32,000 nucleotides of DNA from positions 2,520,001 to 2,552,000 of the forward strand of contig OW818675.1 in NCBI GenBank assembly GCA_942493095.1, in the 5' to 3' direction. Below, piece by piece: positions 20,885-32,000 of the stretch. This DNA comes from Candidatus Electronema halotolerans. GTDB taxonomy: Bacteria > Desulfobacterota > Desulfobulbia > Desulfobulbales > Desulfobulbaceae. Positions within the stretch are counted from its first letter, which is position 1; every line of letters starts with the position of its first letter. The translations under genes and the position numbers were made by a program. The notes under the pieces are model-generated. The model made no database searches. It saw nothing but the letters and a program-made list of their open reading frames with translations, and was not told where the DNA came from.

Positions 20885-20914
20885 CAATTTCAATCTTTGC
20901 CTGTGCAAAAAGAA

Positions 20915-23900
20915 ATGTCCCAGTCAAAGCAAAAAAACAGTCAGATGACCTTGGTCCGCAGCCTGCCGCCCTTGGAGCAGTTTCTGCTCACTTTCATCTC
21001 CATAGTCTATGAGCCGGTCTCGACCGCCTTTCTCAGCGCCTGTCTGACCGGTGCCGAGCTGCCCGGTCTGCCGCAGAAAATAGGCGGCGACGGGCTGGAG
21101 ACTGCGGTCAGCAGGCTGCGGGAAATCGGTTTGCTCAACGAGTTCAACCAGTGTCCGCCAGACCTTGCTGAACAGCTCACCCGGCAGGCGGCGGCAGAAG
21201 GCCGTTTTACCGAGATAGCGGCCCTGATTGAGCAGAAGGCCCCGGTCTCCTACATGTACGGCAAGTGGTCAACCCGCTGCCGCCGCGCCCTGCGCGAGTT
21301 CCGCATCGGCCTGCACAGCAGCGACTTTGACAAGATTGACGAGGCTGCCGTCTTTCTCAAGGAGCACTGCCGGGAGCGGGAAGGCGCAGACCCGCCTGCG
21401 GTGCAGATTGTGGCCGAGCATTTTGACGCGGACTGGTTCCGGGGCCTGCCCGGCTCGCTCCAGTTTTATCTGCTCAATGAAATATTCCGAAACTGCGGCG
21501 AGCAGGCCGTGGATTATCCCCAGGTTGCCGCCTTTCTGGAGGACGAGGAGAACATGACTCTGTCCGAGGATGAGCGGGTGCCTTTTCGGCGCATGCTGGC
21601 CGGCTACTATCTGCTCCGGGACAACGGCAAGCTGAACCAGCTCTTGGCCGCCCATCCTGATTCCTTCCCCGGCTCCGGCTTTGCCGGCAGCGCAGTCTTT
21701 CTCCAAGGCAAGATCGATGAGGCCTTGCAGCTGTTTGACCAGGACTTGGTCCTGCTCAACAAGTACGCTGGCCCGGAAGGCAGTTTCTTCTTCAACAGCA
21801 ACGGCCTGTTCTGCATCATGGCCCTGCTGGCCCGCCGCCAGCCGGACGACATTGCCGCCGCCCGCCGGGCTGCCGCCTTGGTTCTCAGCCGCTGTCAAGG
21901 CAGCCCGGAGGAGCTGTCCTTCCGTTTTCTGGAAGTGTATGCAGTGGCAGCGGACGGGGTTGTGCCGGATCTGCGCATTCTCACTGAAAGTTTTGAACAG
22001 GAGGAGCGCAGCCTCAACACCCTGACCGCCGCTTTGGCCCTGCACTGGCTGGGCGTGCGGCTGCCGGAAAAACTCCAGGCAGGATTGGAGAATCTTTGCA
22101 AAAAAGCCAAAAAGAACGGCTATTTTTGGCTGGCAATGGAGGCGGCCCAGCTGCTTGCCTCTGGCGACTCCAGCCGCAAGGACATGGTCAATGCCGCCAA
22201 GACCTTGGCCAAGAAGAGCGGCTGCCGCAGCCTTGTCCAGCTCATCGCCCCGGATGACGAGTCATGGGAGCAGAGCTTGGAGGAGCTGATCAGCATCACA
22301 GGCCGGGCGCGGCAGCCGGAAAAGAGAAGCCGTCTGGCTTGGACCGTGGAGTTTGCTGACGGCAGGATGACCCTGGCGGCCAAGGAGCAGAAAAAAAAGG
22401 CGGGCGGCAAATGGACCAAGGGCAAGGGCATTGGCCTCAACCGGCTGATGCCGCCGTCCAATGTTGATTTTCTCAGTCCGCAGGATCTGAAGATTTGCGC
22501 CGCCCTGCGTCAAGTCGGCGATCCCAGCTCCCGCAATGGCGGCTGCGACTTTGACATGAACGAGGCCCTGCCCGCCTTGGTTGGCCATCCTTTGGTCTTT
22601 CTGGAAAAAACCAATGTGCCGGTCGAGATTGTCGCGGGCGAGCCGGAGCTGATGGTCGAGTCGCAAGACGACCACCTCTTCATCCACTTTTTGCAGGAGA
22701 TCGGCGAAGGCCGGGTGACGGTCTGGCAGGAGACCCCGACCCGCTTCCGCATTATGGAAATCAACGAGGAGCACCGACGGGTGGCCGGCATCATCGGGCC
22801 GGGTGGCAAACGCTATCCAGAGGCGGCTGGCAGCCAAGTCTTGAGCGCCATCGGCAACATGGCCTCGTTCATGACCGTGCATTCCTCCATTGACGTGGGC
22901 AGCGCGGATCAGAATGTCAAAACCGTTGAGGCGGACCCGACCATTCACATTCATATTATTCCTTATGGCAGCGGCTTCCGGCTGGAGATGTTTGTCCAGC
23001 CCTTTTCCCGCAAAGGGCCGTATCTCAAGCCAGGCGCAGGTGTGGCCAATCTGATGGCTGAGGTCGGCGGGCGGCGGATGCAGACCCGGCGCAATCTTCG
23101 TCTGGAAGAGGAGAAGGCCCGCGAGATTGAGGAGAGCTGCCCAATTCTCGACCTTGCCACAGACTTGGCCCAGGAAAACGACCGCGAGTGGCATCTGCTC
23201 GACCCGGAAGAATGTCTGCAAGCCCTGCTGGAGCTGGAGGAAATCCGCGACCGGGCCGTGCTCGAATGGCCGGAGGGCGAAAAGCTGGCCGTGCGCAAAC
23301 AGGCAGGGATTGGCCAGCTCAATCTCAACATCCGCACCAGCCAGCAGGACTGGTTCGCCCTGTCCGGCCATTTGCAGATCGATCAGGATGAGATCATTGA
23401 CCTGAAAACTCTGCTGGACAAGGTGCGTGAGGCCCACAGCCGCTTCATTCCGCTTGGCAAGGGCCAGTTTCTTGCCCTGACTCAGGAATTCCGCAACCGC
23501 TTGGAGGAGCTGATCCGCTTCAGCGAAATCGGCGGCAAGAACACAGGCGACGCGAAAGAGGTGCGCATTCATCCGTTGGCTGCCTTGGCTTTGGATGATT
23601 TGACCAAGCAGGCTCAGACCCAGGCGGACGAGGGCTGGCGCAAACAGGTGGCCCGGATTGAGTTTGTTCAAGATTTTGTCCCGGAAGTGCCGTCAACATT
23701 GCAGGCCGAGCTGCGCGACTATCAGGTGGAGGGCTTTGTCTGGATGCTGCGCCTAGCCCATCTGGGCGTGGGCGGCTGCTTGGCTGATGACATGGGCCTT
23801 GGCAAAACCCTCCAGTCCTTAGGCGTGATTCTTAACCGGACCGAGGACGGCCCGACCTTGGTGGTTGCGCCGACCTCGGTCTGCATGAACTGGGAGCAGG

Positions 23901-25081
23901 AGGCGGCCCGCTTCGCTCCCACCCTGATCATCCGCAGCCTCAACAATGCCGAGGAGCGGAAAGCCACGATTGAGAACTTGGGCAGGCGGGATATTCTCAT
24001 CACCAGCTACACGCTGCTTCAGCAGGAAATTGACCTGCTTGACCAAGTCGATTGGCAGACCGTGGTCTTGGACGAGGCCCAGTCCATCAAGAATGCGGCC
24101 ACCAAACGCTCCAAGGCGGCCATGCGCCTGAAGGCCAAGTTCCGACTGATCACGACAGGCACACCAATAGAGAATCATCTCGGCGAGCTGTGGAATCTGT
24201 TCAACTTCATCAATCCCGGCCTGCTCGGCACCTACAAGCAGTTCAACAGCCGTTTCGGCATTCCGATTGAAAAGCACGGCGACCGCACTGCCCGGCGGCA
24301 GCTTAAAAAGCTGGTCCGGCCTTTCATGCTCCGCCGGATCAAGTCGCAGGTCTTGGAGGAGCTGCCGCCGCGCACAGAGATCACTCTGCGGGTGGAGATG
24401 AAGCGTTCGGAAATGCTCTTTTACGAGGCCGTGCGGCGGCAGGCTTTGGAGAACATCGAGGGCAGCGACCCCAAGAGCGGGCGGCATCTACAAATCTTGG
24501 CTGAGATCATGCGCCTGCGCCGGGCCTGCTGCAATCCCAAGCTGATTGACGAAAAGAGCAAGATTCCCTCAAGCAAGCTGGAGGTCTTTGGCGAGGTGAT
24601 TGAGGAGCTGCTGGAGTCGCGGCACAAGGCTTTGATCTTCAGTCAGTTCACCGGCCATTTAGCTTTGATCCGAGAGCACTTGGATGAAAAAGGCATCAGC
24701 TACAAGTATTTGGACGGCACCACTCCGGCCAGGGAGCGCATCCGGCAGGTCGATGAATTTCAGGCTGGTGAGGGCGACCTCTTCCTGATCAGCCTCAAGG
24801 CAGGCGGCTTGGGTCTGAACCTGACTGCGGCAGACTATGTCATCCACATGGATCCGTGGTGGAATCCAGCGGTTGAGGATCAGGCCGCTGACCGTGCCCA
24901 CCGCATTGGCCAGAAACGGCCTGTGACCGTCTATCGTTTGGTCACGGCCAACACGATTGAGGAGAAGATCGTCCGCCTGCATCAGGAAAAGCGCAATCTT
25001 GCCAATTCCTTGCTCGAAGGCACAGATGCGGGCGCACGGATGAGCGCGGACGAGCTGCTTGATCTGATCAGGGGAAGCTGA
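20915..25081 (+). CDS. SNF2-family helicase/ATPase with a long (about 930-aa) uncharacterised N-terminal region
   Basis: C-terminal core motifs: LRDYQVEGFVWM, ADDMGLGKT (motif I), DEAQSIKN (II), TGTPIEN (III), LIFSQFT, and GGLGLNLTAADYVIHMDPWWNPAVEDQAADRAHRIGQ (V/VI). The segment just upstream (DWFALSGHLQIDQDEIIDLKTLL...FIPLGKGQFLAL) resembles the bacterial SNF2-associated domain. Start is ATG 20915 or TTG 20897. Confidence 0.9.
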   Translation: MSQSKQKNSQMTLVRSLPPLEQFLLTFISIVYEPVSTAFLSACLTGAELPGLPQKIGGDGLETAVSRLREIGLLNEFNQCPPDLAEQLTRQAAAEGRFTEIAALIEQKAPVSYMYGKWSTRCRRALREFRIGLHSSDFDKIDEAAVFLKEHCREREGADPPAVQIVAEHFDADWFRGLPGSLQFYLLNEIFRNCGEQAVDYPQVAAFLEDEENMTLSEDERVPFRRMLAGYYLLRDNGKLNQLLAAHPDSFPGSGFAGSAVFLQGKIDEALQLFDQDLVLLNKYAGPEGSFFFNSNGLFCIMALLARRQPDDIAAARRAAALVLSRCQGSPEELSFRFLEVYAVAADGVVPDLRILTESFEQEERSLNTLTAALALHWLGVRLPEKLQAGLENLCKKAKKNGYFWLAMEAAQLLASGDSSRKDMVNAAKTLAKKSGCRSLVQLIAPDDESWEQSLEELISITGRARQPEKRSRLAWTVEFADGRMTLAAKEQKKKAGGKWTKGKGIGLNRLMPPSNVDFLSPQDLKICAALRQVGDPSSRNGGCDFDMNEALPALVGHPLVFLEKTNVPVEIVAGEPELMVESQDDHLFIHFLQEIGEGRVTVWQETPTRFRIMEINEEHRRVAGIIGPGGKRYPEAAGSQVLSAIGNMASFMTVHSSIDVGSADQNVKTVEADPTIHIHIIPYGSGFRLEMFVQPFSRKGPYLKPGAGVANLMAEVGGRRMQTRRNLRLEEEKAREIEESCPILDLATDLAQENDREWHLLDPEECLQALLELEEIRDRAVLEWPEGEKLAVRKQAGIGQLNLNIRTSQQDWFALSGHLQIDQDEIIDLKTLLDKVREAHSRFIPLGKGQFLALTQEFRNRLEELIRFSEIGGKNTGDAKEVRIHPLAALALDDLTKQAQTQADEGWRKQVARIEFVQDFVPEVPSTLQAELRDYQVEGFVWMLRLAHLGVGGCLADDMGLGKTLQSLGVILNRTEDGPTLVVAPTSVCMNWEQEAARFAPTLIIRSLNNAEERKATIENLGRRDILITSYTLLQQEIDLLDQVDWQTVVLDEAQSIKNAATKRSKAAMRLKAKFRLITTGTPIENHLGELWNLFNFINPGLLGTYKQFNSRFGIPIEKHGDRTARRQLKKLVRPFMLRRIKSQVLEELPPRTEITLRVEMKRSEMLFYEAVRRQALENIEGSDPKSGRHLQILAEIMRLRRACCNPKLIDEKSKIPSSKLEVFGEVIEELLESRHKALIFSQFTGHLALIREHLDEKGISYKYLDGTTPARERIRQVDEFQAGEGDLFLISLKAGGLGLNLTAADYVIHMDPWWNPAVEDQAADRAHRIGQKRPVTVYRLVTANTIEEKIVRLHQEKRNLANSLLEGTDAGARMSADELLDLIRGS

Positions 25082-25084
25082 CGG

Positions 25085-25612
25085 ATGCAGCCGGAGCGAA
25101 TTTTCCAGCGGCCTGCGCCGGTCGAGCGGCCAGATGCTGCGGCCCCGCGCTTCCTCCGCATTGGCAAGGCCAGCGTTGGTCTGCTTGGTCTGGACATTGC
25201 CCTCAATGCCGCGTTCCGTCAGCAGCTTCCAGAGCAGGAGGCTGCGGAGCTGCTCTTTGCCCGGATCAAGGAGCAGAACTATATTCCGCCTAGCTGCGAG
25301 GAGCAGTACCGCGAGGCCTTGCTGGCCGCCTATCGCAAGCATTGCGGCCTGAGCGAGGGTGACGAAGAAGGCTTGGTGATTCGCATTTTTGGCAAGGACT
25401 GCGTGAGCTGCAACGGCCTGCAAGCCATGCTCATCGACCTGCTGGACCGGCTCGGCTTGGCTGCGGACGTGGAGCTGATTCACGACCCGGACGAGATTGG
25501 CCGGGCCGGTCTGACCCGCACTCCGGCCCTGATGATCAACAGCAGAGTCAAAAGTGCCGGAATCGTTCCGTCTCCGGCGCAGGTGGAGCAGTGGCTTTTG
25601 GAGGAAGGGTGA
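25085..25612 (+). CDS. thioredoxin-fold CxxC protein (Thioredoxin_3-like C-terminal domain) with an unassigned N-terminal extension of about 95 aa
   Basis: 175 aa. The ATG lies 3 nt after the SNF2 stop. The C-terminal half, IRIFGKDCVSCNGL...TRTPALMINSRVKSAGIVPSPAQVEQWL, matches small redox-active disulfide proteins. I do not recognise the N-terminal half. Confidence 0.75.
   Translation: MQPERIFQRPAPVERPDAAAPRFLRIGKASVGLLGLDIALNAAFRQQLPEQEAAELLFARIKEQNYIPPSCEEQYREALLAAYRKHCGLSEGDEEGLVIRIFGKDCVSCNGLQAMLIDLLDRLGLAADVELIHDPDEIGRAGLTRTPALMINSRVKSAGIVPSPAQVEQWLLEEG
25513..25533. repeat. left copy of the perfect 21-bp direct repeat GACCCGCACTCCGGCCCTGAT
   Basis: Read directly. It lies inside the Trx-like gene (codons for LTRTPALM). 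Identity with the right copy stops at both edges (T vs C before the repeat, G vs A after it). Confidence 0.95.
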
Positions 25613-25626
25613 AGGGTGAATATGAA

Positions 25627-26676
25627 ATGACCCCAGTCAGATACATTGATCTTTTTGCCGGGGTCGGCGGCTTCCGCTACGCTGTGCAGACGGCGGCGGA
25701 AGAAGCGGGCCTTGCAGCCGAATGCGTTTTCAGCAGCGAGATTGACAAGGAATGCCAGCGGGTTTACCAAGAGAATTTTGCTGAGATGTCGCATGGCGAC
25801 ATAACTGCAATTCCGGCAGCATCGATTCCTGAACATGACCTGCTGTTAGCAGGATTTCCCTGCCAGCCATTCAGCATCATCGGCCAGCGAAAGGGATTTC
25901 AAGATGCCAGAGGCACGCTTTTCTTTGAGATCGCAAGAATATTGGAGGCAAAGAAGCCAGCTGCCTTTGTTCTGGAAAATGTCAAGCTGCTGGCCGGACA
26001 CAACAATGGAGAGACCTTAAAGATAATTCTGGATATTTTGCAGGAATTAGGGTATCACAGCGGCTATAAAATTCTAAATGCCTTGAATTTTGGCCTGCCG
26101 CAGAAACGAGAGCGGATTTTTATTGTCGGTTTCCGCGATTCCTGTTCATTTAACTGGCCTGTTGAGAAAATCCCAATGCAGCCACTCAAGGAAATTTTGG
26201 AGAAAAATGTTGCAGCAAGTTATTTTGCCTCTGATCATATCAGGAAAAAGCGACTGAGCCAAAAGCAGCCTTCAATAGAGCCGACCATCTGGCATGAGAA
26301 CAAATCCGGCAACATAAGCGCATATCCATTTTCCTGCGCCTTGCGGGCCGGAGCTTCATATAATTATTTATTAGTCAACGGAGAACGGCGGCTGACAGCG
26401 AGAGAAATGTTTCGTCTGCAAGGATTTCCAGAGGAATTCAAAATTATTTCCAGTTATGCGCAGGCACGAAAGCAGGCAGGAAACAGCTTACCTGTGCCTG
26501 TTGCCAAGGCAGTGATCAGGAATGTGCTTGAGGCTTGCGGGTGGATTACTGAACATGCAAACAGAACTGCTGTCCGCCAGCTTAATTTATTTGCAAGAAG
26601 AAATTACGATGAAATCGCCAAGACTGCGGACGGTGGAAAAATATCACCCGCCCTATCCGCTCAACAAATTTCCTGA
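25627..26676 (+). CDS. DNA (cytosine-5)-methyltransferase, HhaI-like core architecture
   Basis: Motif I DLFAGVGGF, motif IV GFPCQPFS, motif VI ENV, motif VIII QKRERIFIVGF, motif X GNSLPVP. From my memory of M.HhaI, the conserved blocks track it closely while the target-recognition region differs. Confidence 0.93.
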   Translation: MTPVRYIDLFAGVGGFRYAVQTAAEEAGLAAECVFSSEIDKECQRVYQENFAEMSHGDITAIPAASIPEHDLLLAGFPCQPFSIIGQRKGFQDARGTLFFEIARILEAKKPAAFVLENVKLLAGHNNGETLKIILDILQELGYHSGYKILNALNFGLPQKRERIFIVGFRDSCSFNWPVEKIPMQPLKEILEKNVAASYFASDHIRKKRLSQKQPSIEPTIWHENKSGNISAYPFSCALRAGASYNYLLVNGERRLTAREMFRLQGFPEEFKIISSYAQARKQAGNSLPVPVAKAVIRNVLEACGWITEHANRTAVRQLNLFARRNYDEIAKTADGGKISPALSAQQIS

Positions 26677-27343
26677 AAAATTTGCCGTCAATTTAGGTCG
26701 GGAGGTGGTGTATCTGCTTGCCAGCAGAGGAAAAGCCGCTCGCTTGGAAGGACAGGACTGGGAGGAAATTTTTGCCCGGCTGATTGGTGCGGAATGGAAG
26801 CCTTCCAATGTCGGCCTTGACGATATTGTCTTGGAGCAAACCGCTTGGGGAGCCAAAACTATTAAAAATTCCAAGCCTTCCACAGTTGCAAAAGTTCGTT
26901 TGATATCTGGCCGCAATTCTCCTGTTTACTCATTCGGCGATAAAGAAATCAGTGCCTGCGAGCCAAATGAACTGGGCGAAAAAATTCTTGCCATCTGGAA
27001 TGAACGAGTGGCGGGGATTCGCAAGATGTATCGACATGTCCGCACAGTGGTGCTGATCAAGTCCAACGATCTGCTTGAACTTGCTGCCTTTGAGTTTGAC
27101 ACGGTCATGTATCCTGCTGATCAGTATTGGTGGCAATGGAATGAACGCAACAATCTTGAAGGGTATGCCAAGGCTGATAATCAGCATATTTTCACGTGGC
27201 AGCCGCATGGCTCTCAGTTCACCATTATTGAAAATGTCCCTGAAGAACGGCTGGCGGTCAAAATAAAAGCACCGCTGCTGCTTGACCGCGATGAAGTGTT
27301 GCAGTCGATCAAATTTGATCCATCTTGGATAACCATCTTATAG
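26609..27343 (+). CDS. putative type II restriction endonuclease (partner of the m5C methyltransferase)
   Basis: 244-aa ORF overlapping the MTase 3' end by 68 nt, with the same low GC. It has a possible PD-(D/E)xK-like stretch GLDDIVLEQTAWGAKTIK. The assignment rests on position and composition; I do not recognise the family. Confidence 0.55.
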   Translation: MKSPRLRTVEKYHPPYPLNKFPEKFAVNLGREVVYLLASRGKAARLEGQDWEEIFARLIGAEWKPSNVGLDDIVLEQTAWGAKTIKNSKPSTVAKVRLISGRNSPVYSFGDKEISACEPNELGEKILAIWNERVAGIRKMYRHVRTVVLIKSNDLLELAAFEFDTVMYPADQYWWQWNERNNLEGYAKADNQHIFTWQPHGSQFTIIENVPEERLAVKIKAPLLLDRDEVLQSIKFDPSWITIL

Positions 27344-27357
27344 CGGTGGCATGTCAC

Positions 27358-27378
27358 GACCCGCACTCCGGCCCTGAT
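27358..27378. repeat. right copy of the perfect 21-bp direct repeat GACCCGCACTCCGGCCCTGAT
   Basis: Read directly. It lies in the 52-bp spacer between the endonuclease stop (27343) and the DUF362 start (27396). Confidence 0.95.
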
Positions 27379-27395
27379 ATCCTATTCAGATCGTC

Positions 27396-28637
27396 ATGAT
27401 TGAGAAAAAATATCGAGCAGATATTCTGCAAAGCCGCTCGTTCGACGAACTGCGGGAAAAAATAGCCGCCGGGCTGGAAAGATACCGCGACCTGCTGCCT
27501 GCCGACCCCAGGGCCAGCATTCTGCTCAAGCCGAATCTGAACAGCAACATGAACGCTCTGACCGGCAACACCACAGACCTGCGCCTCATCGCCGCTGTGC
27601 TGCTCTTTCTCAAGCAGGCAGGCTATGAGAACATCACCATTGGCGAGGGCACCAACAGCGGCTTTTACCGCAGCGGCATCAGCGTGATCACCCGGCTGCG
27701 GGTCGATACGCTGGCCCGGCACTATGGAGTCAAGTGCATTGACCTCAACTATTCCCAGCCGGTGCCCATTCCTTTTGCTGACGGCGTGCAGGCTGGCATT
27801 GCCAAGGAATGCGCAGAGGCGGATTTCTTCATCAACATGCCCAAGCTGAAAACCCATTTTGAAGCAGGCATGACCGTCTGTCTGAAAAATTTGATCGGCT
27901 GCTTGGTTGGCCAAGAAAACAAGAAAAAGACCCATCTGGCCTTGGCAGACAATATTGTCAGCATCACGGAAAACTGCCGCCCGCATCTGCACATTGTTGA
28001 CGGGCTGATGGCAATGGAAGGTCTGGGGCCGACCAAAGGCACGCCAGTGCGGACAGACACAGTTTTCATTGGCACTGATCCCTATTTTCTCGACCTGCTT
28101 GCGGCCCGCTTCGCCTCCTGCGACATCGACACCATCGGCCCGCTGCAAGCCGCCCGGCGGCGGGGCTTGATCAGCGAAGAACTGCGGCGGCAGGCAGAGG
28201 CATTTCCGCTGCCTGTTTATGAACGGCCTTTTGCCCCGCCCAAGGCCGGGCCGCTCGCCTCTTTCATCCATCACCCCAAACGGCAGAAATACTTTCTCGC
28301 CATCCGCAACACCCGGTTCTTCAATTGGGCTTGCAGCACGGAATTGGTCGGCAAGCTCCTCTTCCTGACTGACCTGCGCCAAGATGTCTTTTTGGATGAG
28401 GAAATGGACTGCGAGGGCCTGAGCGTAGTTGTGGACAAATGCGACCGCTGCGGCAAGTGCGCGGCCTACTGTCCGCTCGGCCTGTCCCTGCCAGAAGATA
28501 TAACCAACAAGGCCTGCATCCGCTGCCTCTACTGCTTCTGCGTCTGTCCGCAGGAGGCAATCCAATTTCACGGCAAACTCGGCTTCATGGCCGAGCAGAT
28601 CAAGCAGTACGACGCGCTGATCCGCAAGTCGGCCTGA
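27396..28637 (+). CDS. DUF362 domain protein fused to a 2x[4Fe-4S] ferredoxin domain
   Basis: 413 aa. N-terminal DUF362-like region (LKPNLNSNMNALTGNTTD..., MPKLKTHFEAGMT). C-terminal CDRCGKCAAYCP and CIRCLYCFCVCP cluster motifs. Confidence 0.85.
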   Translation: MIEKKYRADILQSRSFDELREKIAAGLERYRDLLPADPRASILLKPNLNSNMNALTGNTTDLRLIAAVLLFLKQAGYENITIGEGTNSGFYRSGISVITRLRVDTLARHYGVKCIDLNYSQPVPIPFADGVQAGIAKECAEADFFINMPKLKTHFEAGMTVCLKNLIGCLVGQENKKKTHLALADNIVSITENCRPHLHIVDGLMAMEGLGPTKGTPVRTDTVFIGTDPYFLDLLAARFASCDIDTIGPLQAARRRGLISEELRRQAEAFPLPVYERPFAPPKAGPLASFIHHPKRQKYFLAIRNTRFFNWACSTELVGKLLFLTDLRQDVFLDEEMDCEGLSVVVDKCDRCGKCAAYCPLGLSLPEDITNKACIRCLYCFCVCPQEAIQFHGKLGFMAEQIKQYDALIRKSA

Positions 28638-28896
28638 CTGTTCTCTGTGCGCACTGCGGGCTGTTTCAGCGAGCCTTGTGCATGAACAAGCGACATTTTT
28701 TGGCAGCACCCCGCAGTCTTTCCGAACCCCTTCCAGCATTTTTCTCAACCAGCAATGCCGCCATGTTATGCTGATTCATTCTCATACAGGCACTTGCATT
28801 CCCGTTTGGCATGGCTTACACTTTTTCTTGAAGACTGCCTGCTGAAAATGCGCCTGTCGAAGAGTGGGCATCACTGCTTTTGTCAAAGGAGGAAAA

Positions 28897-29829
28897 ATGT
28901 TCCTGTTCACAAGGCATTTCGTGATCTTCCTATTCTCTTTTTCGCTCTTGTCCCAAGCGGCGGCCAGCATTGGGGCTGCCAAGGAAAAGGTCATCGCTTT
29001 TGCTCAGGACACGATGGCCAATGATTATCGCAAAGAGCAGGTTTACGAGGTGCGTGATGCGCTTGCCGAGCATCCAGAAATCAAATTTGTCTATTCGGAT
29101 GCCAAAGGTCAGACTTCTCTGCTTATTCGTCAAATAGAGAAATTCATTGCCGCAAAGGTGGATATACTTATTGTCGGGACCAATGATCCTGATGCTGTTG
29201 TGCCAGTTGTTGAAAAAGCGCATCAGCTTGGCATTGCAGTCATCATTTTAGACAGAGGCGTTCATGCCAACCAATACACGGTGTTCATCAATTCAGATAA
29301 CATTGAAATTGGGGCAATCGGGGCGGAATATATTGCTGCACAGCTCAATGGCAAAGGCGATGTCCTGCTTTTTGAAGGCCTGCCCAAGGCGGATGTGACC
29401 CAGCTGCGCACCAAGGGCTTTCTTGATGCAATCAGCAAATACAAAGCAATCAAGGTGATCCGGCGGACAGGAAATTATCTGCGCAAGGATGCGATCATTG
29501 AAATGGAGAAACTTATCGCCCAAGGGATTCATCTTGATGCGATTTTCTCAGAAAGTGACAGCATGTTGAGCGGAGTGCGTTCCGCTTTGAAGCGCCACAA
29601 TCTGGATCCGGCAAAAAGTATTATGGTTGGCTGTGATTACACCAGCGAGGCGCAGGAGGCGATCAAAAAAGGTGCTCAGACCGCATCAATTCTTTTTCCT
29701 TTGGGAGGACATAAAACTGCCGAGATTGCCCTCAAGATTCTTCGAGGGGAAGAGGTTCCGAAACATATTATTATTCCTGTCAAACTTGTGACCAAAGAGA
29801 ATGTCAACGAAGTCGCGCCTGTTTTTTAA
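28897..29829 (+). CDS. periplasmic sugar-binding-type (Peripla_BP_4-like) solute-binding protein
   Basis: Start at 28897 has an AGGAGG Shine-Dalgarno, followed by signal peptide MFLFTRHFVIFLFSFSLLSQAAA. It has ribose-binding-protein-like blocks (VDILIVGTNDPDAVVPVVEKA, IAVIILDRG). No ABC permease or ATPase genes are adjacent. Confidence 0.8.
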   Translation: MFLFTRHFVIFLFSFSLLSQAAASIGAAKEKVIAFAQDTMANDYRKEQVYEVRDALAEHPEIKFVYSDAKGQTSLLIRQIEKFIAAKVDILIVGTNDPDAVVPVVEKAHQLGIAVIILDRGVHANQYTVFINSDNIEIGAIGAEYIAAQLNGKGDVLLFEGLPKADVTQLRTKGFLDAISKYKAIKVIRRTGNYLRKDAIIEMEKLIAQGIHLDAIFSESDSMLSGVRSALKRHNLDPAKSIMVGCDYTSEAQEAIKKGAQTASILFPLGGHKTAEIALKILRGEEVPKHIIIPVKLVTKENVNEVAPVF

Positions 29830-29833
29830 CAGG

Positions 29834-32000
29834 ATGAAGAGCCTCAAATTAACAGGCAAGCTTTCGCTGCTCATCATCTTTGGCATTATTGTTTCAACAG
29901 GAGCTTTGGGATTCTATTTTGACTCTTTTCTGAAAACAAACTTTCTTGAAGATGCGACTAAACGAATATTGTATGGTTTTCAGCGGCTTGAATTTGACAC
30001 GGTTGCCATATCTCAGGAATTGCTGGAGGGGATTTCCTTCATCCAAACTGATGAGCATTTTTTAGCTTCCATTGATCTGATCAACAACTATCAGGATAAA
30101 GACAACTACAACGCTGTCCTGCTCGATGAAGAGAAAAAAATTATCAACAGGCAGCTGCTCACCCGGGTTAAACTCTCTTTAAATCACCGCATAGTGCTGT
30201 ATGACAGAGATGAGGAGCTGGTCGCCTTTGTTGAACAGGAGCAAGATGGATATCGTCTTTATTTTGTTTCATACTCAGGTGGGCGGAAAACCTTGTGCAG
30301 CCGCCGTGAAGATCAGAAATTGTATGTCTGTGATCCTTTTCCTGCAACTCTGCCTGTTGATCTTCATCATCACTCCTATTACTCACATGCTTCGGCCAGG
30401 CAGGGCACGCTCACCTATCATATAGACAACGGGCATATCAGAATAAGTTCCCACTTGAGCATCTTTGATGATGCGGATGAGAATATATTGGCGCATATTG
30501 AGATGTCACATATTTTTCATGACGAATATTTCACAAACTTGTCTAAGGATATGGGACTTGTGATCAAAGGAAGCACGGACCGGAAAGACCATGTCAATGT
30601 GAATTTTCTATCGGCGACAACCAGTTTGGAGAATTTTTCCATTGCTGACGGGGAGGCATCCTGTTTCAGCACTGCAAAAATTGACACCTTGGACGGCGCT
30701 TTTTTCTACCATGTCGCGCTCAATAAAGAAAAGCTGCTCGTCTCATTAAAGAAGAACAGAGAACAGCTTTATATTATTGTCAGCATTGTTACTGCTCTGG
30801 TTCTGGTGCTGCTTCACTTTGTCTTTGCTAAAACCCTTGTCAAGCCGCTGGAACTGCTCATGGAGCAAATCCGCAAAATCGAAGCTCAGGATTACACACC
30901 ATCGACCTTGGCGCAAACTGGTGATGAACTGGAAACTATATCAAAAAACATCAACCAGTTGGCCAGCACCATCCAAGACCGCGAAGATGCCCTGCTGGCC
31001 TCGCAGAAAAACTTGGAGTATCTTTCGCATCATGATCCATTGACCGGTCTGCCCAACCGCCGTCTGTTCATGTCGCATTTGCAGCAGGCCCAAGGGCAGG
31101 AAGCCAGACTTGCGGTGCTCTTTCTGGACCTTGATGAATTCAAACAGATCAACGACACCTTGGGTCATGATGTCGGCGACCAGCTTCTTGTGGAAGTATC
31201 TTTGCGGCTGGCTGCGGTGATGCGTTCTTCAGGCATCTTGGCCCGCATCGGCGGGGATGAGTTCAATATTCTGCTGGAGCATGTTGCATCTGCTCATGAG
31301 GTCGAGGCGGCAGCTGAAGCGCTGCTGGCGGTGTTCAGGAAACCTTTTGCCTGCGCCGGACATGAGCTGAACACCAGTGTCAGCATTGGGGCGGCGTTCC
31401 ATCCTGATGACGGTGAAGATGCAGTCACCTTGATCAGACATGCCGACATGGCCATGTATCAGGCCAAGGCTACAGGCGGCAATGGCTGCTGCTTTTTCTC
31501 TGCTGACTTGGCAGCCCGGGTGCAGCAGCGCATCGACCGGATCAACGCCCTGAAAAGGGCACTGCTCCATCTTGATGAATTTCACCTGCTGCATCAGCCG
31601 AAAGTGTCCCTGCTGACCGGCAGGGTGGAAGGAATGGAGGCATTGATACGCTGGCAGAGTGCCAGCTTGGGCTTTATGCGGCCTGATCAGTTCATTCCGC
31701 TGGCGGAAGAGACCGGTTTGATCATTCCCTTGGGTGCATGGGTGGCGGAACAGGCCTTCAGAGATTTTCTGACCTTGCAAAAAGCAGGCTGTCCAATTCG
31801 CAAGGTCAGCATCAACCTTTCAGCTGTTCAACTCCTGAACAGCGATATCGTTGCCATGATTACAAAAGCTGTCAGCAGAACCGGCATCCTGCCGGAGCAG
31901 ATTGAACTGGAGATAACCGAAAGCTGCATTGCCATCAATGAGAAGAAAATTATTCAGACACTCAGGCAGCTCCGCAGCATGAAGATTGAGCTGGCCATAG
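29834..32000 (+). CDS. membrane sensor diguanylate cyclase/phosphodiesterase (extracytoplasmic domain-TM-HAMP-GGDEF-EAL), partial at the window end
   Basis: My own translation from ATG 29834, 4 nt after the PBP stop, stays open to 32000. TM1 LSLLIIFGIIVSTGALGF, then about 285 aa extracytoplasmic, then TM2 IIVSIVTALVLVLLHFVF and a HAMP domain. The GGDEF domain has DPLTGLPNRR and RIGGDEF; the EAL domain has EALIRW and ELEITES. It is absent from the ORF track because it lacks a stop. Confidence 0.9.
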   Translation, partial: MKSLKLTGKLSLLIIFGIIVSTGALGFYFDSFLKTNFLEDATKRILYGFQRLEFDTVAISQELLEGISFIQTDEHFLASIDLINNYQDKDNYNAVLLDEEKKIINRQLLTRVKLSLNHRIVLYDRDEELVAFVEQEQDGYRLYFVSYSGGRKTLCSRREDQKLYVCDPFPATLPVDLHHHSYYSHASARQGTLTYHIDNGHIRISSHLSIFDDADENILAHIEMSHIFHDEYFTNLSKDMGLVIKGSTDRKDHVNVNFLSATTSLENFSIADGEASCFSTAKIDTLDGAFFYHVALNKEKLLVSLKKNREQLYIIVSIVTALVLVLLHFVFAKTLVKPLELLMEQIRKIEAQDYTPSTLAQTGDELETISKNINQLASTIQDREDALLASQKNLEYLSHHDPLTGLPNRRLFMSHLQQAQGQEARLAVLFLDLDEFKQINDTLGHDVGDQLLVEVSLRLAAVMRSSGILARIGGDEFNILLEHVASAHEVEAAAEALLAVFRKPFACAGHELNTSVSIGAAFHPDDGEDAVTLIRHADMAMYQAKATGGNGCCFFSADLAARVQQRIDRINALKRALLHLDEFHLLHQPKVSLLTGRVEGMEALIRWQSASLGFMRPDQFIPLAEETGLIIPLGAWVAEQAFRDFLTLQKAGCPIRKVSINLSAVQLLNSDIVAMITKAVSRTGILPEQIELEITESCIAINEKKIIQTLRQLRSMKIELAI

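Follow-up and report, generated by a model that had tools for sequence, protein, structure and literature searches.

A perfect 21-bp repeat around a mobile methyltransferase–putative endonuclease pair in Candidatus Electronema halotolerans, probably a scar of later rearrangement

In the cable bacterium Candidatus Electronema halotolerans, a perfect 21-bp direct repeat brackets a cytosine-5 DNA methyltransferase gene (M) and the gene of a putative restriction endonuclease (R), and we think it fairly probable that this repeat is a minor mark left by local rearrangement after M-R had arrived and is no footprint of the insertion itself. The whole stretch of DNA analysed, 32,000 nucleotides of contig OW818675.1, is called the window, and positions are counted from its first letter. 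The first-pass annotation of the window had read the repeat as the footprint, or target duplication, of a recombinase-free insertion of a restriction-modification (R-M) unit. The M-R pair does prove to be foreign, mobile and recombinase-free; what fails is the repeat as its footprint, because the repeat does not adjoin the foreign DNA, is most likely younger than the insertion, and has no matching empty site among the relatives' loci.

The repeat and its setting

The features of the locus, in window coordinates, are as follows.

20897..25081, + strand: SNF2-family helicase gene (PF00176, PF00271), a conserved core gene of the left flank
25085..25612, + strand: thioredoxin-like (Trx) gene of the MTH895/ArsE type (PF13192 Thioredoxin_3, E 1e-14; TIGR00412)
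25513-25533, + strand: left 21-mer, the source copy, Trx codons (L)TRTPAL(M)
25613..25626, + strand: 14-bp spacer from Trx stop to M start, left edge of the foreign DNA, with the same junction in loci L017, L016 and L030
25627..26676, + strand: M, cytosine-5 DNA methyltransferase (PF00145, E 6e-87; TIGR00675, E 9e-90)
26609..27343, + strand: R, putative restriction endonuclease of 244 aa, whose gene shares 68 nt with the 3′ end of M
27344..27389, no strand: lineage-specific joint of 46 bp (14 nt + 21-mer + 11 nt)
27358-27378, + strand: right 21-mer, the secondary copy, non-coding and identical to 25513-25533
27396..28637, + strand: DUF362 and 4Fe-4S ferredoxin-domain gene (PF04015, E 8e-42)

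The 21-mer GACCCGCACTCCGGCCCTGAT occurs exactly twice in the window, both times on the + strand, at 25513-25533 and 27358-27378, and a scan of the window allowing up to three mismatches returned no further match. It was matched in none of 100 shuffles (0 matches expected by chance). The edges of the repeat are sharp, with the in-register flanks agreeing at 4/14 positions to the left of the repeat and at 2/11 to its right. A gapped alignment of the flanks of both copies scored no better than shuffles. The left copy is in frame, running from ct|G to AT|g within the Trx gene (25085-25612), and the right copy, identical at 21/21 positions to this locus 1845 bp upstream, falls within the 52 bp (27344-27395) that separate R from the DUF362 ATG at 27396. 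Between the copies are the last 79 bp of Trx, the 14-bp spacer, the C5-methylase gene (25627-26676) and the 244-aa open-reading frame (26609-27343). On all these points the scan, shuffles, flank alignments and coordinates bear out the first-pass annotation, which had described an exact repeat with abrupt ends, one copy inside the Trx codons LTRTPALM and one in the 52-bp spacer, enclosing only 79 bp of Trx, a methylase and a putative endonuclease; the 14-bp spacer is to be added. The same repeat and gene structure was present in three independent Logan assemblies (L001, L002 and L030), indicating that it is no assembly artefact.

In composition the M-R pair is foreign to its host, and it moves horizontally as a unit of two genes. 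The M protein covers positions 2-322 of the 324 in the PF00145 profile and also matches PADLOC MTase_II (E 1e-106); its best solved relative is M.HhaI (E 8e-65), with which the variable target-recognition part aligned poorly, the HhaI sequence used there being approximate. As the earlier annotation had sampled, GC content is below that of the neighbors, at 0.477 for M and 0.476 for R against 0.597 for SNF2, 0.627 for Trx and 0.572 for DUF362, or 48% overall against ~60% in the flanks, and the GC3 values of M and R are 0.49 and 0.50 against 0.73-0.76 for the same three neighbors. The pair, spanning 25627-27343 in an inserted segment of <20 kb, recurs in unrelated contexts, namely L018, L019-L022 and a gut phage contig, and in these copies homology stops at the ends of the open-reading frames. 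Homology with the L019/L020 copy starts at 25641, and that with L018 (84% nt; a locus without a left flank, which may or may not be orthologous to the Trx-linked copy) and with L019-22 (75-78% nt) is lost exactly at the R stop codon. No direct repeats flank the M-R copy in L019/L021. Integrase, transposase and resolvase domains were absent from the large open-reading frames of the 32-kb window, in line with the earlier statement that no recombinase is nearby. No palindrome was conspicuously avoided in a scan of the window, and a literature search on cable bacteria and R-M found nothing relevant.

R is the putative nuclease of the pair. It has 4020 homologues of ~245 aa (4020 clusters at 90% and 364 clusters at 50% identity), and the conservation of their N-terminus places the start of R at the ATG at 26609. 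In every context seen, R lies downstream of an M homologue. No match to R was found in Pfam, NCBIfam, PADLOC, PHROGs or PDB sequences, in two profile searches, or among plasmids; the only phage match was one unannotated contig, and a BFVD search returned uncharacterised phage proteins only. A first AF2 model built from a shallow alignment was poor (pLDDT 64), making its fold search meaningless, and a second reached a pLDDT of 95.5, with weak best PDB folds in DpnI (E 0.035, TM 0.25) and HincII (E 0.26). The near-invariant residues D72 ... (S/G)81-A-K83 could represent a PD-(D/E)XK variant. This very large, unannotated family with no solved relative merits matching against REBASE and biochemical study.

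Age of the insertion and age of the repeat

The Trx-like protein carries a conserved N-terminal extension, and in an alignment of 13 homologues the residues past TPALM are conserved as well, with K156, G159, P162, E168 and W170 invariant. The conserved 3′ end is also present in homologues without M-R, and the whole Trx 3′ end, including the 79 bp after the left copy, is ancestral. Since these 79 bp of conserved Trx come after the left copy, the 21-mer does not flank foreign DNA. Their divergence from the loci L017 and L016 is like that of the rest of Trx, with no break at 25513. An exact look-up of the full-length Trx and SNF2 proteins returned no record.

The left flank is shared with relatives. 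Ca. Electronema sp. PJ and L016/L017 all show synteny at the SNF2 gene, which is 87-88% identical in nucleotides to that of the latter two, and the more distant L026 retains synteny with the left flank at 76% nt, a SurA-like gene included. At about 85-88% nt, L017 and L016 have the same Trx-stop/M-start junction, followed by M or by an 80-bp remnant of it, which is one half of what the earlier annotation had named as speaking against its own reading. Identity between the window and L017/L016 is uniform across SNF2, Trx and M, and at 4-fold sites the window differs from L017 at 126/413 positions in SNF2, 17/60 in Trx and 18/55 in M, each ~0.3. The common junction and the equal neutral divergence in the three genes indicate that M-R arrived before these lineages split.

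The right 21-mer, judged from substitution counts, is most likely younger than the M-R insertion, because it matches its own left copy exactly while the orthologous Trx 21-mers differ at three positions in L017 and five in L016. At a Jukes-Cantor distance of ~0.196 per lineage, the probability of no change at 21 neutral sites is 0.016, or ~0.005 when the synonymous sites of the left copy are counted jointly; this dating assumes that the right copy is neutral and M vertically inherited, and recombinational spread of the Trx-M junction would weaken it. Outgroup polarising of the substitutions in the 21-mer was ambiguous, the third positions being saturated. L030, a second strain from another sample, is 99.2% identical to the window and carries the same joint. 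Between the two, SNPs number 3/1717 bp in M-R against 39/5446 bp elsewhere (Fisher p = 0.01), which hints at recent recombination in the segment. A 14-bp indel polymorphism is present at 25603/25604, just upstream of the Trx-M spacer.

The right joint and the origin of the second copy

The limits of the joint are set by homology on either side. On the left, homology with L018 and L019-22 stops at the R stop codon, and on the right, homology with L029 starts at 27390, 6 nt before the DUF362 ATG. The intervening 46 bp are identical in L030 and matched no other fetched locus, and no pre-event allele of 27344-27389 was found among the relatives' loci. The right-flank block itself is conserved, with DUF362 first, followed by a periplasmic binding protein and a GGDEF/EAL gene. 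L029 has the same three genes (86% nt), with CRISPR-like repeats upstream of DUF362 instead; L016 and L029 may belong to one lineage. The best DUF362 match in species-representative genomes is in Ca. Electronema sp. JC (L003; 83% aa), where neither Trx nor SNF2 lies near DUF362. The DUF362 orthologues of L003 and L029 have other left neighbors, none of them Trx, and the 21-mer is absent upstream of the orthologues. The empty site, Trx with one 21-mer leading into ATCCTATTCAG...DUF362 without M-R, was found in none of the relatives in the searched collections, so the proposal that relatives would have Trx directly followed by DUF362 found no example.

Other genes follow Trx in the distant relatives L023, L025 and L026, and the genes seen after Trx in other relatives include a toxin-antitoxin (TA) pair and DUF4062, among others. 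Because gene content after Trx varies in this way among relatives, the site downstream of SNF2-Trx counts as a hotspot of gene turnover across cable bacteria and related organisms, hosting an R-M unit, DUF4062, a TA pair and possibly a CRISPR array.

In the sequence of events that we favor for this freshwater, Ca. Electronema-like cable bacterium, a small variable islet lies downstream of the core pair SNF2-Trx and, in the lineage of the window, would hold only the M-R unit. This unit, presumably an ordinary Type II R-M system in which M methylates a site and R would cut unmethylated DNA, would already have adjoined Trx in the ancestor of at least three lineages now ~13% apart in DNA. Later, and in the window's lineage only, the right side of the islet would have been remodelled, joining R to the DUF362 block through the novel 46-bp joint and leaving the 21-nt Trx copy in mid-joint as a by-product. 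Two routes may be envisaged for the copy, which we infer arose during this rearrangement. It may be a short patch templated from 1.8 kb upstream, through a template switch, filler synthesis or an ectopic single-strand integration resembling SPDIR. Alternatively, it may mark a tandem-duplication joint (27357|25513) whose second copy was then deleted almost entirely with the rest of the islet. Both are rare or two-step events. More specifically, the right 21-mer may be a short patch copied from within the genome (SPDIR-like or template-switch filler) and fixed in nature when the defence islet of this uncultured bacterium was remodelled, a claim that we hold tentatively and consider rather doubtful. 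If true, a kind of mutation documented until now mostly in laboratory Acinetobacter would have a natural example, next to an R-M unit whose nuclease could have made the break that started the process. Given a pre-event allele, the 46-bp joint would lend itself to the study of templated patches or duplication scars as a clean case from nature.

Two further ideas about the right copy were rejected. The TCAC before it also precedes the second GACCCG at 25484, hinting at a 29-bp slip with p ~0.004-0.05 at best; the 14 nt and 17 nt flanking the right copy resembled Trx no more than shuffles did. A CRISPR-spacer origin was dismissed, as the window holds no repeat-like sequence and the identity extends over 21 nt, not 32 nt.

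Among other explanations, the closest to the earlier insertion reading is that M-R inserted after Trx with duplication of the target from 25513 to ~25620, the right copy then being cut to 21 bp. The direct orientation of the copies, the distance of only 14 nt from the R stop to the right copy, the lack of a mobility gene nearby and the documented R-M insertions that involve no recombinase and duplicate a long target (Furuta et al. 2010, PMC2853133) agree with such an event, which is the earlier suggestion of a remnant of a longer target duplication. We nevertheless find it improbable: the left junction is shared at a neutral divergence of ~0.3 and yet the copies are still identical (P ~0.005-0.016). 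Moreover, R and the copy are 14 unrelated nt apart, although M-R elsewhere ends at the stop codon; the flanks show no relationship in register, 21 bp falls below the 30-bp criterion, no empty site was found, and the second context, L019/L021, has no flanking repeat. A further alternative is a Campbell-type or att-like integration, in which a circular element made of the 21-mer, the Trx 3′ end, M and R recombined at the 21-mer and supplied a replacement Trx 3′ end; two direct repeats that bracket a gene 3′ end plus cargo do resemble target-restoring integrative elements. Under this reading, proposed earlier, the ancestral Trx ended in ..TRTPAL-ISYSDRHD and overlapped the DUF362 start, and the in-silico fusion is arithmetically correct, its reading frame ending with the TGA at 27401-27403. 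That ending would, however, delete the five invariant residues K156, G159, P162, E168 and W170 from a 3′ end conserved family-wide, and the 79 bp diverge like the rest of Trx without a discontinuity at 25513. With no integrase present and DUF362 beside Trx in no relative examined, we regard this reading as very unlikely.

A function for the right copy, either as a protein or RNA binding site common to Trx mRNA or DNA and the DUF362 leader, or as a recombination substrate for looping out the Trx 3′ end with M and R, also strikes us as unlikely. The copy is fixed and unchanged in two strains, although at 0.7% divergence two strains give no power to detect constraint, and its distance of 18-38 nt upstream of the DUF362 start is one at which regulatory sites are met, yet the element is absent upstream of DUF362 orthologues. 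The right copy and joint matched no Rfam family, promoter or terminator, and folding of the copy gave no stable RNA structure (z = +1.4), hairpin or palindrome. RecA-dependent recombination has a minimal length close to 21 bp, but looping out would shorten a conserved gene and would cost the cell M before R, with lethality expected. It is very improbable that the 21-mer belongs to a dispersed REP-like family or is a chance match, a multi-copy alternative already raised by the first-pass annotation and unsupported here. The copy count does cover only 32 kb of this genome; against this stand the two copies found where none is expected, their absence from 13 genome loci of relatives and from relatives' loci fetched later (same-species contigs excepted), and the ordinary conserved coding nature of the left copy. 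A scan of 241 million JGI metagenome records gave only two unrelated high-GC matches, saying little about genome-wide copy number because that set does not contain this species, and viral contigs gave no match.

A scar of local rearrangement thus remains our preferred reading, and its main value is as a caution, since a perfect repeat around a low-GC R-M pair mimics the textbook footprint of a recombinase-free insertion.

Comparison with known systems

Two classes are readily set apart from this locus. Site-specific integrative elements combine att sites with an integrase, unlike the window, where no large open-reading frame encodes a recombinase, and REP-like repeats are many, usually palindromic and intergenic, unlike the 21-mer with its two copies in 32 kb, one of them coding, and its lack of a hairpin. 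The likeness to R-M insertions with long target duplications, which require >30 bp (Furuta et al. 2010, PMC2853133), is closer, in that a recombinase-free R-M pair of <20 kb lies between direct repeats of host sequence. It differs from them in that the repeat is 21 bp long and younger than the insertion, in that 79+14 bp on the left and 14 bp on the right separate repeat from foreign DNA, and in that no empty site was found.

In Acinetobacter, SPDIR is documented to leave patches of 3 to ~100 bp from intragenomic donors, as summarised in a bioRxiv preprint (10.1101/2023.11.22.568220). The right 21-mer is similarly a short, exact, ectopic intragenomic patch with abrupt ends within otherwise unrelated DNA. 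The diagnostic feature of SPDIR is microhomology between donor and pre-event recipient at both crossover points, and the likeness drawn here is from patch identity and ends only. In contrast to SPDIR, which alone does not produce gene-scale change, the patch here lies within a joint where whole genes were rearranged too. R-M multiplication has reportedly been a subject of the Kobayashi laboratory, and tandem duplication or amplification of R-M units followed by collapse is a further comparison. An 'end of unit | start of unit' joint of that kind would put the 21-mer right after R in direct orientation, as seen; just 21 bp of the putative second copy are left, and none of the three assemblies contains an intermediate with two M-R copies.

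As for the unit itself, partner R matches no known restriction-enzyme family and its fold likeness to DpnI and HincII is weak, a difference from characterised Type II m5C R-M systems. It resembles them in that the C5-methylase has a full PF00145 match with M.HhaI as its best solved relative, the GC content is atypical for the host, and the gene of a ~245-aa partner overlaps M at its 3′ end and accompanies it in unrelated genomes and in a phage contig.

The 21-bp repeat and its surroundings

The 21-mer GACCCGCACTCCGGCCCTGAT occurs exactly twice in the window, both times on the plus strand. The left copy lies within a thioredoxin-like gene (Trx), and the right copy lies between the stop codon of a putative restriction endonuclease gene (R) and the ATG of a DUF362 gene. 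No further copy was found in the window at up to 3 mismatches, and there were no matches in 100 dinucleotide-preserving shuffles. The features of the locus are as follows.

20897-25081, plus strand: SNF2 protein, 1394 aa (PADLOC DpdE profiles, E 1e-184; ZorD profiles, E 1e-119)
25085-25612, plus strand: Trx, 175 aa (PF13192, TIGR00412)
25513-25533, plus strand: left 21-mer, in frame within Trx, coding for (L)TRTPAL(M)
25627-26676, plus strand: M, C5 DNA methyltransferase (PF00145, E 6e-87)
26609-27343, plus strand: R, 244-aa ORF from ATG 26609
27358-27378, plus strand: right 21-mer, in the 52-bp spacer from R stop to DUF362 ATG
27396-28637, plus strand: DUF362/ferredoxin gene

Logan assemblies of three separate runs independently recovered this structure. 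The first-pass annotation had taken the repeat for the footprint of a recombinase-free insertion of the M-R pair, and the sequence observations on which it drew were all confirmed in the window. The direct repeat is exact at both positions, and only 79 bp of Trx, a 14-bp spacer, M and then the 244-aa ORF lie between the copies. The GC content of M and R is 0.477 and 0.476 (GC3 0.49 and 0.50), against 0.57-0.63 in SNF2, Trx and DUF362 (GC3 0.73-0.76). The large ORFs of the 32-kb window belong to the usual core set (Era, Lon, FtsY, a SurA-like protein, NAD kinase, ProC and others), and no recombinase domain was present among them. Compared in register, the flanks of the two 21-mers match at 4/14 and 2/11 positions, and gapped alignment of these flanks was no better than shuffles.

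The closest named relatives of the window are freshwater cable bacteria, with the DUF362 protein 83% identical to that of Ca. Electronema sp. JC and the SurA-SNF2 block syntenic with Ca. Electronema sp. PJ at 76% nucleotide identity. Despite its DpdE and ZorD profile matches, SNF2 is a syntenic core gene adjoining the SurA-like gene in strain PJ. The Trx-like family is present in Ca. Electronema, Ca. Electrothrix and other Desulfobulbaceae. A periplasmic-binding-protein gene at 28864-29829 is also low in GC relative to its neighbours (0.47; GC3 0.49), though it holds the same position in L029, the contig with the closest DUF362 orthologue.

Edges and age of the M-R unit

The M-R pair was found with unrelated downstream genes in L018 (84% nucleotide identity), between a GFO_IDH_MocA gene and a DJ-1/PfpI gene in L019-L022 (75-78%), and in the same gene order on a human-gut phage contig (59%/51% amino acid identity). 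In every case the homology begins within the first codons of M and ends at the R stop codon. The proposed mobility of the pair is thus borne out by its unrelated contexts, but a flanking duplication is not a signature of its movement, since in L019 and L021 the flanking direct repeats do not exceed 11 bp and none of them adjoins M-R.

On the left side, an alignment of 13 Trx homologues shows family-wide conservation of the 25 residues that follow TPALM, with K156, G159, P162, E168 and W170 invariant, including in genomes without M-R. The 79 bp after the left copy diverge from relatives as the rest of Trx does, with no break at 25513, indicating that the foreign DNA starts after the Trx stop codon and that 79+14 bp of host sequence separate it from the left 21-mer. 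A foreign origin of the Trx 3' end was ruled out by this conservation. Where Trx ends and M begins, at 25603/25604, the strains are polymorphic for a 14-bp indel, GAAGGGTGAAGAAT, which is a slipped duplicate of GAAGGGTGAAG and is present in L030 (a second strain), found in variant form in L017 and absent from the window; Trx-M spacing is 28 or 14 nt depending on it.

The Trx-stop/M-start junction is common to the window and two metagenomic relatives, L017 (JGI 3300035186), which reads SNF2-Trx-M to the contig end, and L016 (ENA ERZ23499700), which reads SNF2-Trx and the first ~80 bp of M, with a DUF4062 gene in M's place (M is cut at this point within L016 2009-3047). The remnant indicates that the R-M unit was replaced at the same site there. 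Nucleotide identity of these relatives to the window is uniform (SNF2 0.88, Trx 5' part 0.85, M 0.86), as is divergence from L017 at four-fold degenerate sites (126/413, 17/60 and 18/55 in SNF2, Trx and M, about 0.3 each), so M co-diverged with its core neighbours. It follows from these alignments that the M-R unit would have been in place at Trx before the three lineages split. The GC of M is not ameliorated in L017 either (0.46).

The orthologous Trx 21-mers differ from the window's at 3 (L017) and 5 (L016) positions, while the non-coding right copy of the window is identical to its own left copy. At a Jukes-Cantor distance of 0.39 (~0.196 per lineage), a neutral 21-mer dating from the split would stay unchanged with a probability of 0.016, or about 0.005 when the synonymous sites of the left copy are counted jointly with the right copy. 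Outgroup polarising of the differences was ambiguous owing to saturation at third positions. On these figures, which assume a neutral right copy and vertical descent of M, the repeat postdates the arrival of M-R and hence is not its pristine target duplication. The joint in L030, 99.2% identical and from a different sample, is identical to the window's, and the right copy is at least as old as the window/L030 split. Over 24772-32000, the window and L030 differ by 3 SNPs in the 1717 bp of M-R and 39 in 5446 bp of flanks (Fisher p = 0.01), densest in the Trx 5' part (8 in 428 bp); the low M-R count may stem from recent recombination or from a sweep affecting the cassette region.

The right joint and the origin of the repeat

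Trx is followed by M in the window, L030 and L017, by the M remnant and DUF4062 in L016, by a HigB/HTH toxin-antitoxin pair in L025 (3513-4143), by phospholipid-synthesis genes in L023 and by small ORFs and HIT/ComEA-like genes in Ca. Electronema sp. PJ (L026). DUF362 has CRISPR-like repeats as its upstream neighbour in L029; in Ca. Electronema sp. JC an 823-aa ORF takes that place. Judged from gene content, the region downstream of Trx is evidently a turnover hotspot, and in cable bacteria and their relatives the site acts as a small hotspot for variable or defence genes. The empty site anticipated by the first-pass annotation, Trx directly followed by DUF362, did not turn up among the relatives examined, and DUF362 is not demonstrable from these loci as the ancestral neighbour of Trx.

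The DUF362 orthologue in L029 (92% amino acid, 86% nucleotide identity) is followed, as in the window, by a periplasmic binding protein and GGDEF/EAL genes, and homology begins only at 27390, 6 bases before the DUF362 ATG. In L029 1-125 (ENA ERZ27283454), TTTACTGCCGCACAGGCAGCTTAGAAA is present twice in full and once in part, so the left neighbour of DUF362 there resembles the terminus of a CRISPR array; the repeat, which we take to resemble that of type I-F, is absent from the window. The 46-bp joint between R stop and this homology (27344-27389) is made up of 14 nt, the 21-mer and a further 11 nt and, L030 apart, has no match in the other loci examined. The TCAC before the right copy equals that before the second GACCCG in Trx, at 25484, which is no more than suggestive of a right copy derived from Trx 25480-25533 by loss of 29 bp through slippage between the GACCCG repeats.

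The ordinary explanation, and probably the correct one, is that the 21-bp repeat is a secondary scar, not an insertion footprint. In the reading we find most economical and moderately favour, an m5C R-M unit would have been acquired downstream of Trx in an ancestor, the right side of the islet would have kept turning over, and a rearrangement in the window's lineage would have joined R to the DUF362 block through the 46-bp joint, with its 21-nt copy of nearby Trx sequence. The last step could be a templated patch (template switch, filler or SPDIR-like integration of an ectopic single strand) or a tandem duplication with the joint 27357|25513, after which almost the entire second copy was deleted together with the sequence past it; both would fit.

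Were the right copy instead the remnant of a longer target duplication made at M-R insertion, its identity to the left copy would have to have outlasted an old M-R (P 0.016, or about 0.005 jointly) and an empty Trx/DUF362 site might be expected, and we consider this unlikely. Incoming DNA that gave Trx a new 3' end in place of an ancestral ..TPAL-ISYSDRHD* is very improbable, as that fusion loses all five invariant residues, the present 3' end is the family-wide one and no divergence break occurs at 25513. There is only a slight chance that the right copy was kept for a selected function, the joint having no Rfam match, stable fold (z = +1.4) or promoter/terminator consensus. Membership of a dispersed, REP-like family, which would have overturned the earlier reading, is itself highly unlikely: the 21-mer was absent from 13 relatives' genome loci and, same-species contigs apart, from other relatives' loci, and occurred in only 2 unrelated high-GC contigs among 241 million JGI records and in no viral contig. 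For its own genome, the count of two copies refers to the 32-kb window.

The M-R pair compared with known systems

Relatives of R form 4020 clusters at 90% identity and 364 at 50%, nearly all of about 245 aa, from Deltaproteobacteria, Achromatium genomes and a gut phage contig. R had no match in Pfam, NCBIfam, PADLOC, PHROGs or PDB sequences, two profile searches included. Automatic calls on the Logan contigs start R at GTG 26633 (236 aa). Residues P4, L6, R7, K11 and Y12, conserved at the N-terminus of homologues, support a start at ATG 26609 instead, giving a 68-nt overlap with M. An AlphaFold2 model from a diverse alignment (pLDDT 95.5, pTM 0.89) had no significant PDB fold match, the best folds being the restriction enzymes DpnI (E 0.035, TM 0.25) and HincII, both weak, and matched an uncharacterised phage protein in BFVD (E 3e-12). 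D72, K83, R102, N131, R133, E162, Q198 and Q203 are near-invariant, and D72 and (S/G)81-A-K83, which the model puts on neighbouring strands, may be a PD-(D/E)XK variant. This unannotated, very large and highly conserved putative nuclease family is a side interest of the locus.

SPDIR patches span 3 to about 100 bp (bioRxiv 10.1101/2023.11.22.568220). Long-target-duplication insertions, by the criteria of Furuta et al. 2010 (PMC2853133), enclose R and M, are shorter than 20 kb, have a duplication above 30 bp and correspond to a single copy at an empty site. The M-R locus shares only the enclosed genes and the length, as its repeat is 21 bp and no empty site with a single copy was found. Within the Type II m5C R-M class, M is a full-length C5-methylase (best solved relative M.HhaI, E 8e-65) and belongs by membership; its variable region gave no convincing alignment with an approximate HhaI query sequence, so GCGC specificity is not to be assumed. 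For R, a nuclease role is proposed from its conserved linkage to M and the weak fold resemblance, and the pair, in its variable islet, is predicted to function in the way usual for Type II m5C R-M units.
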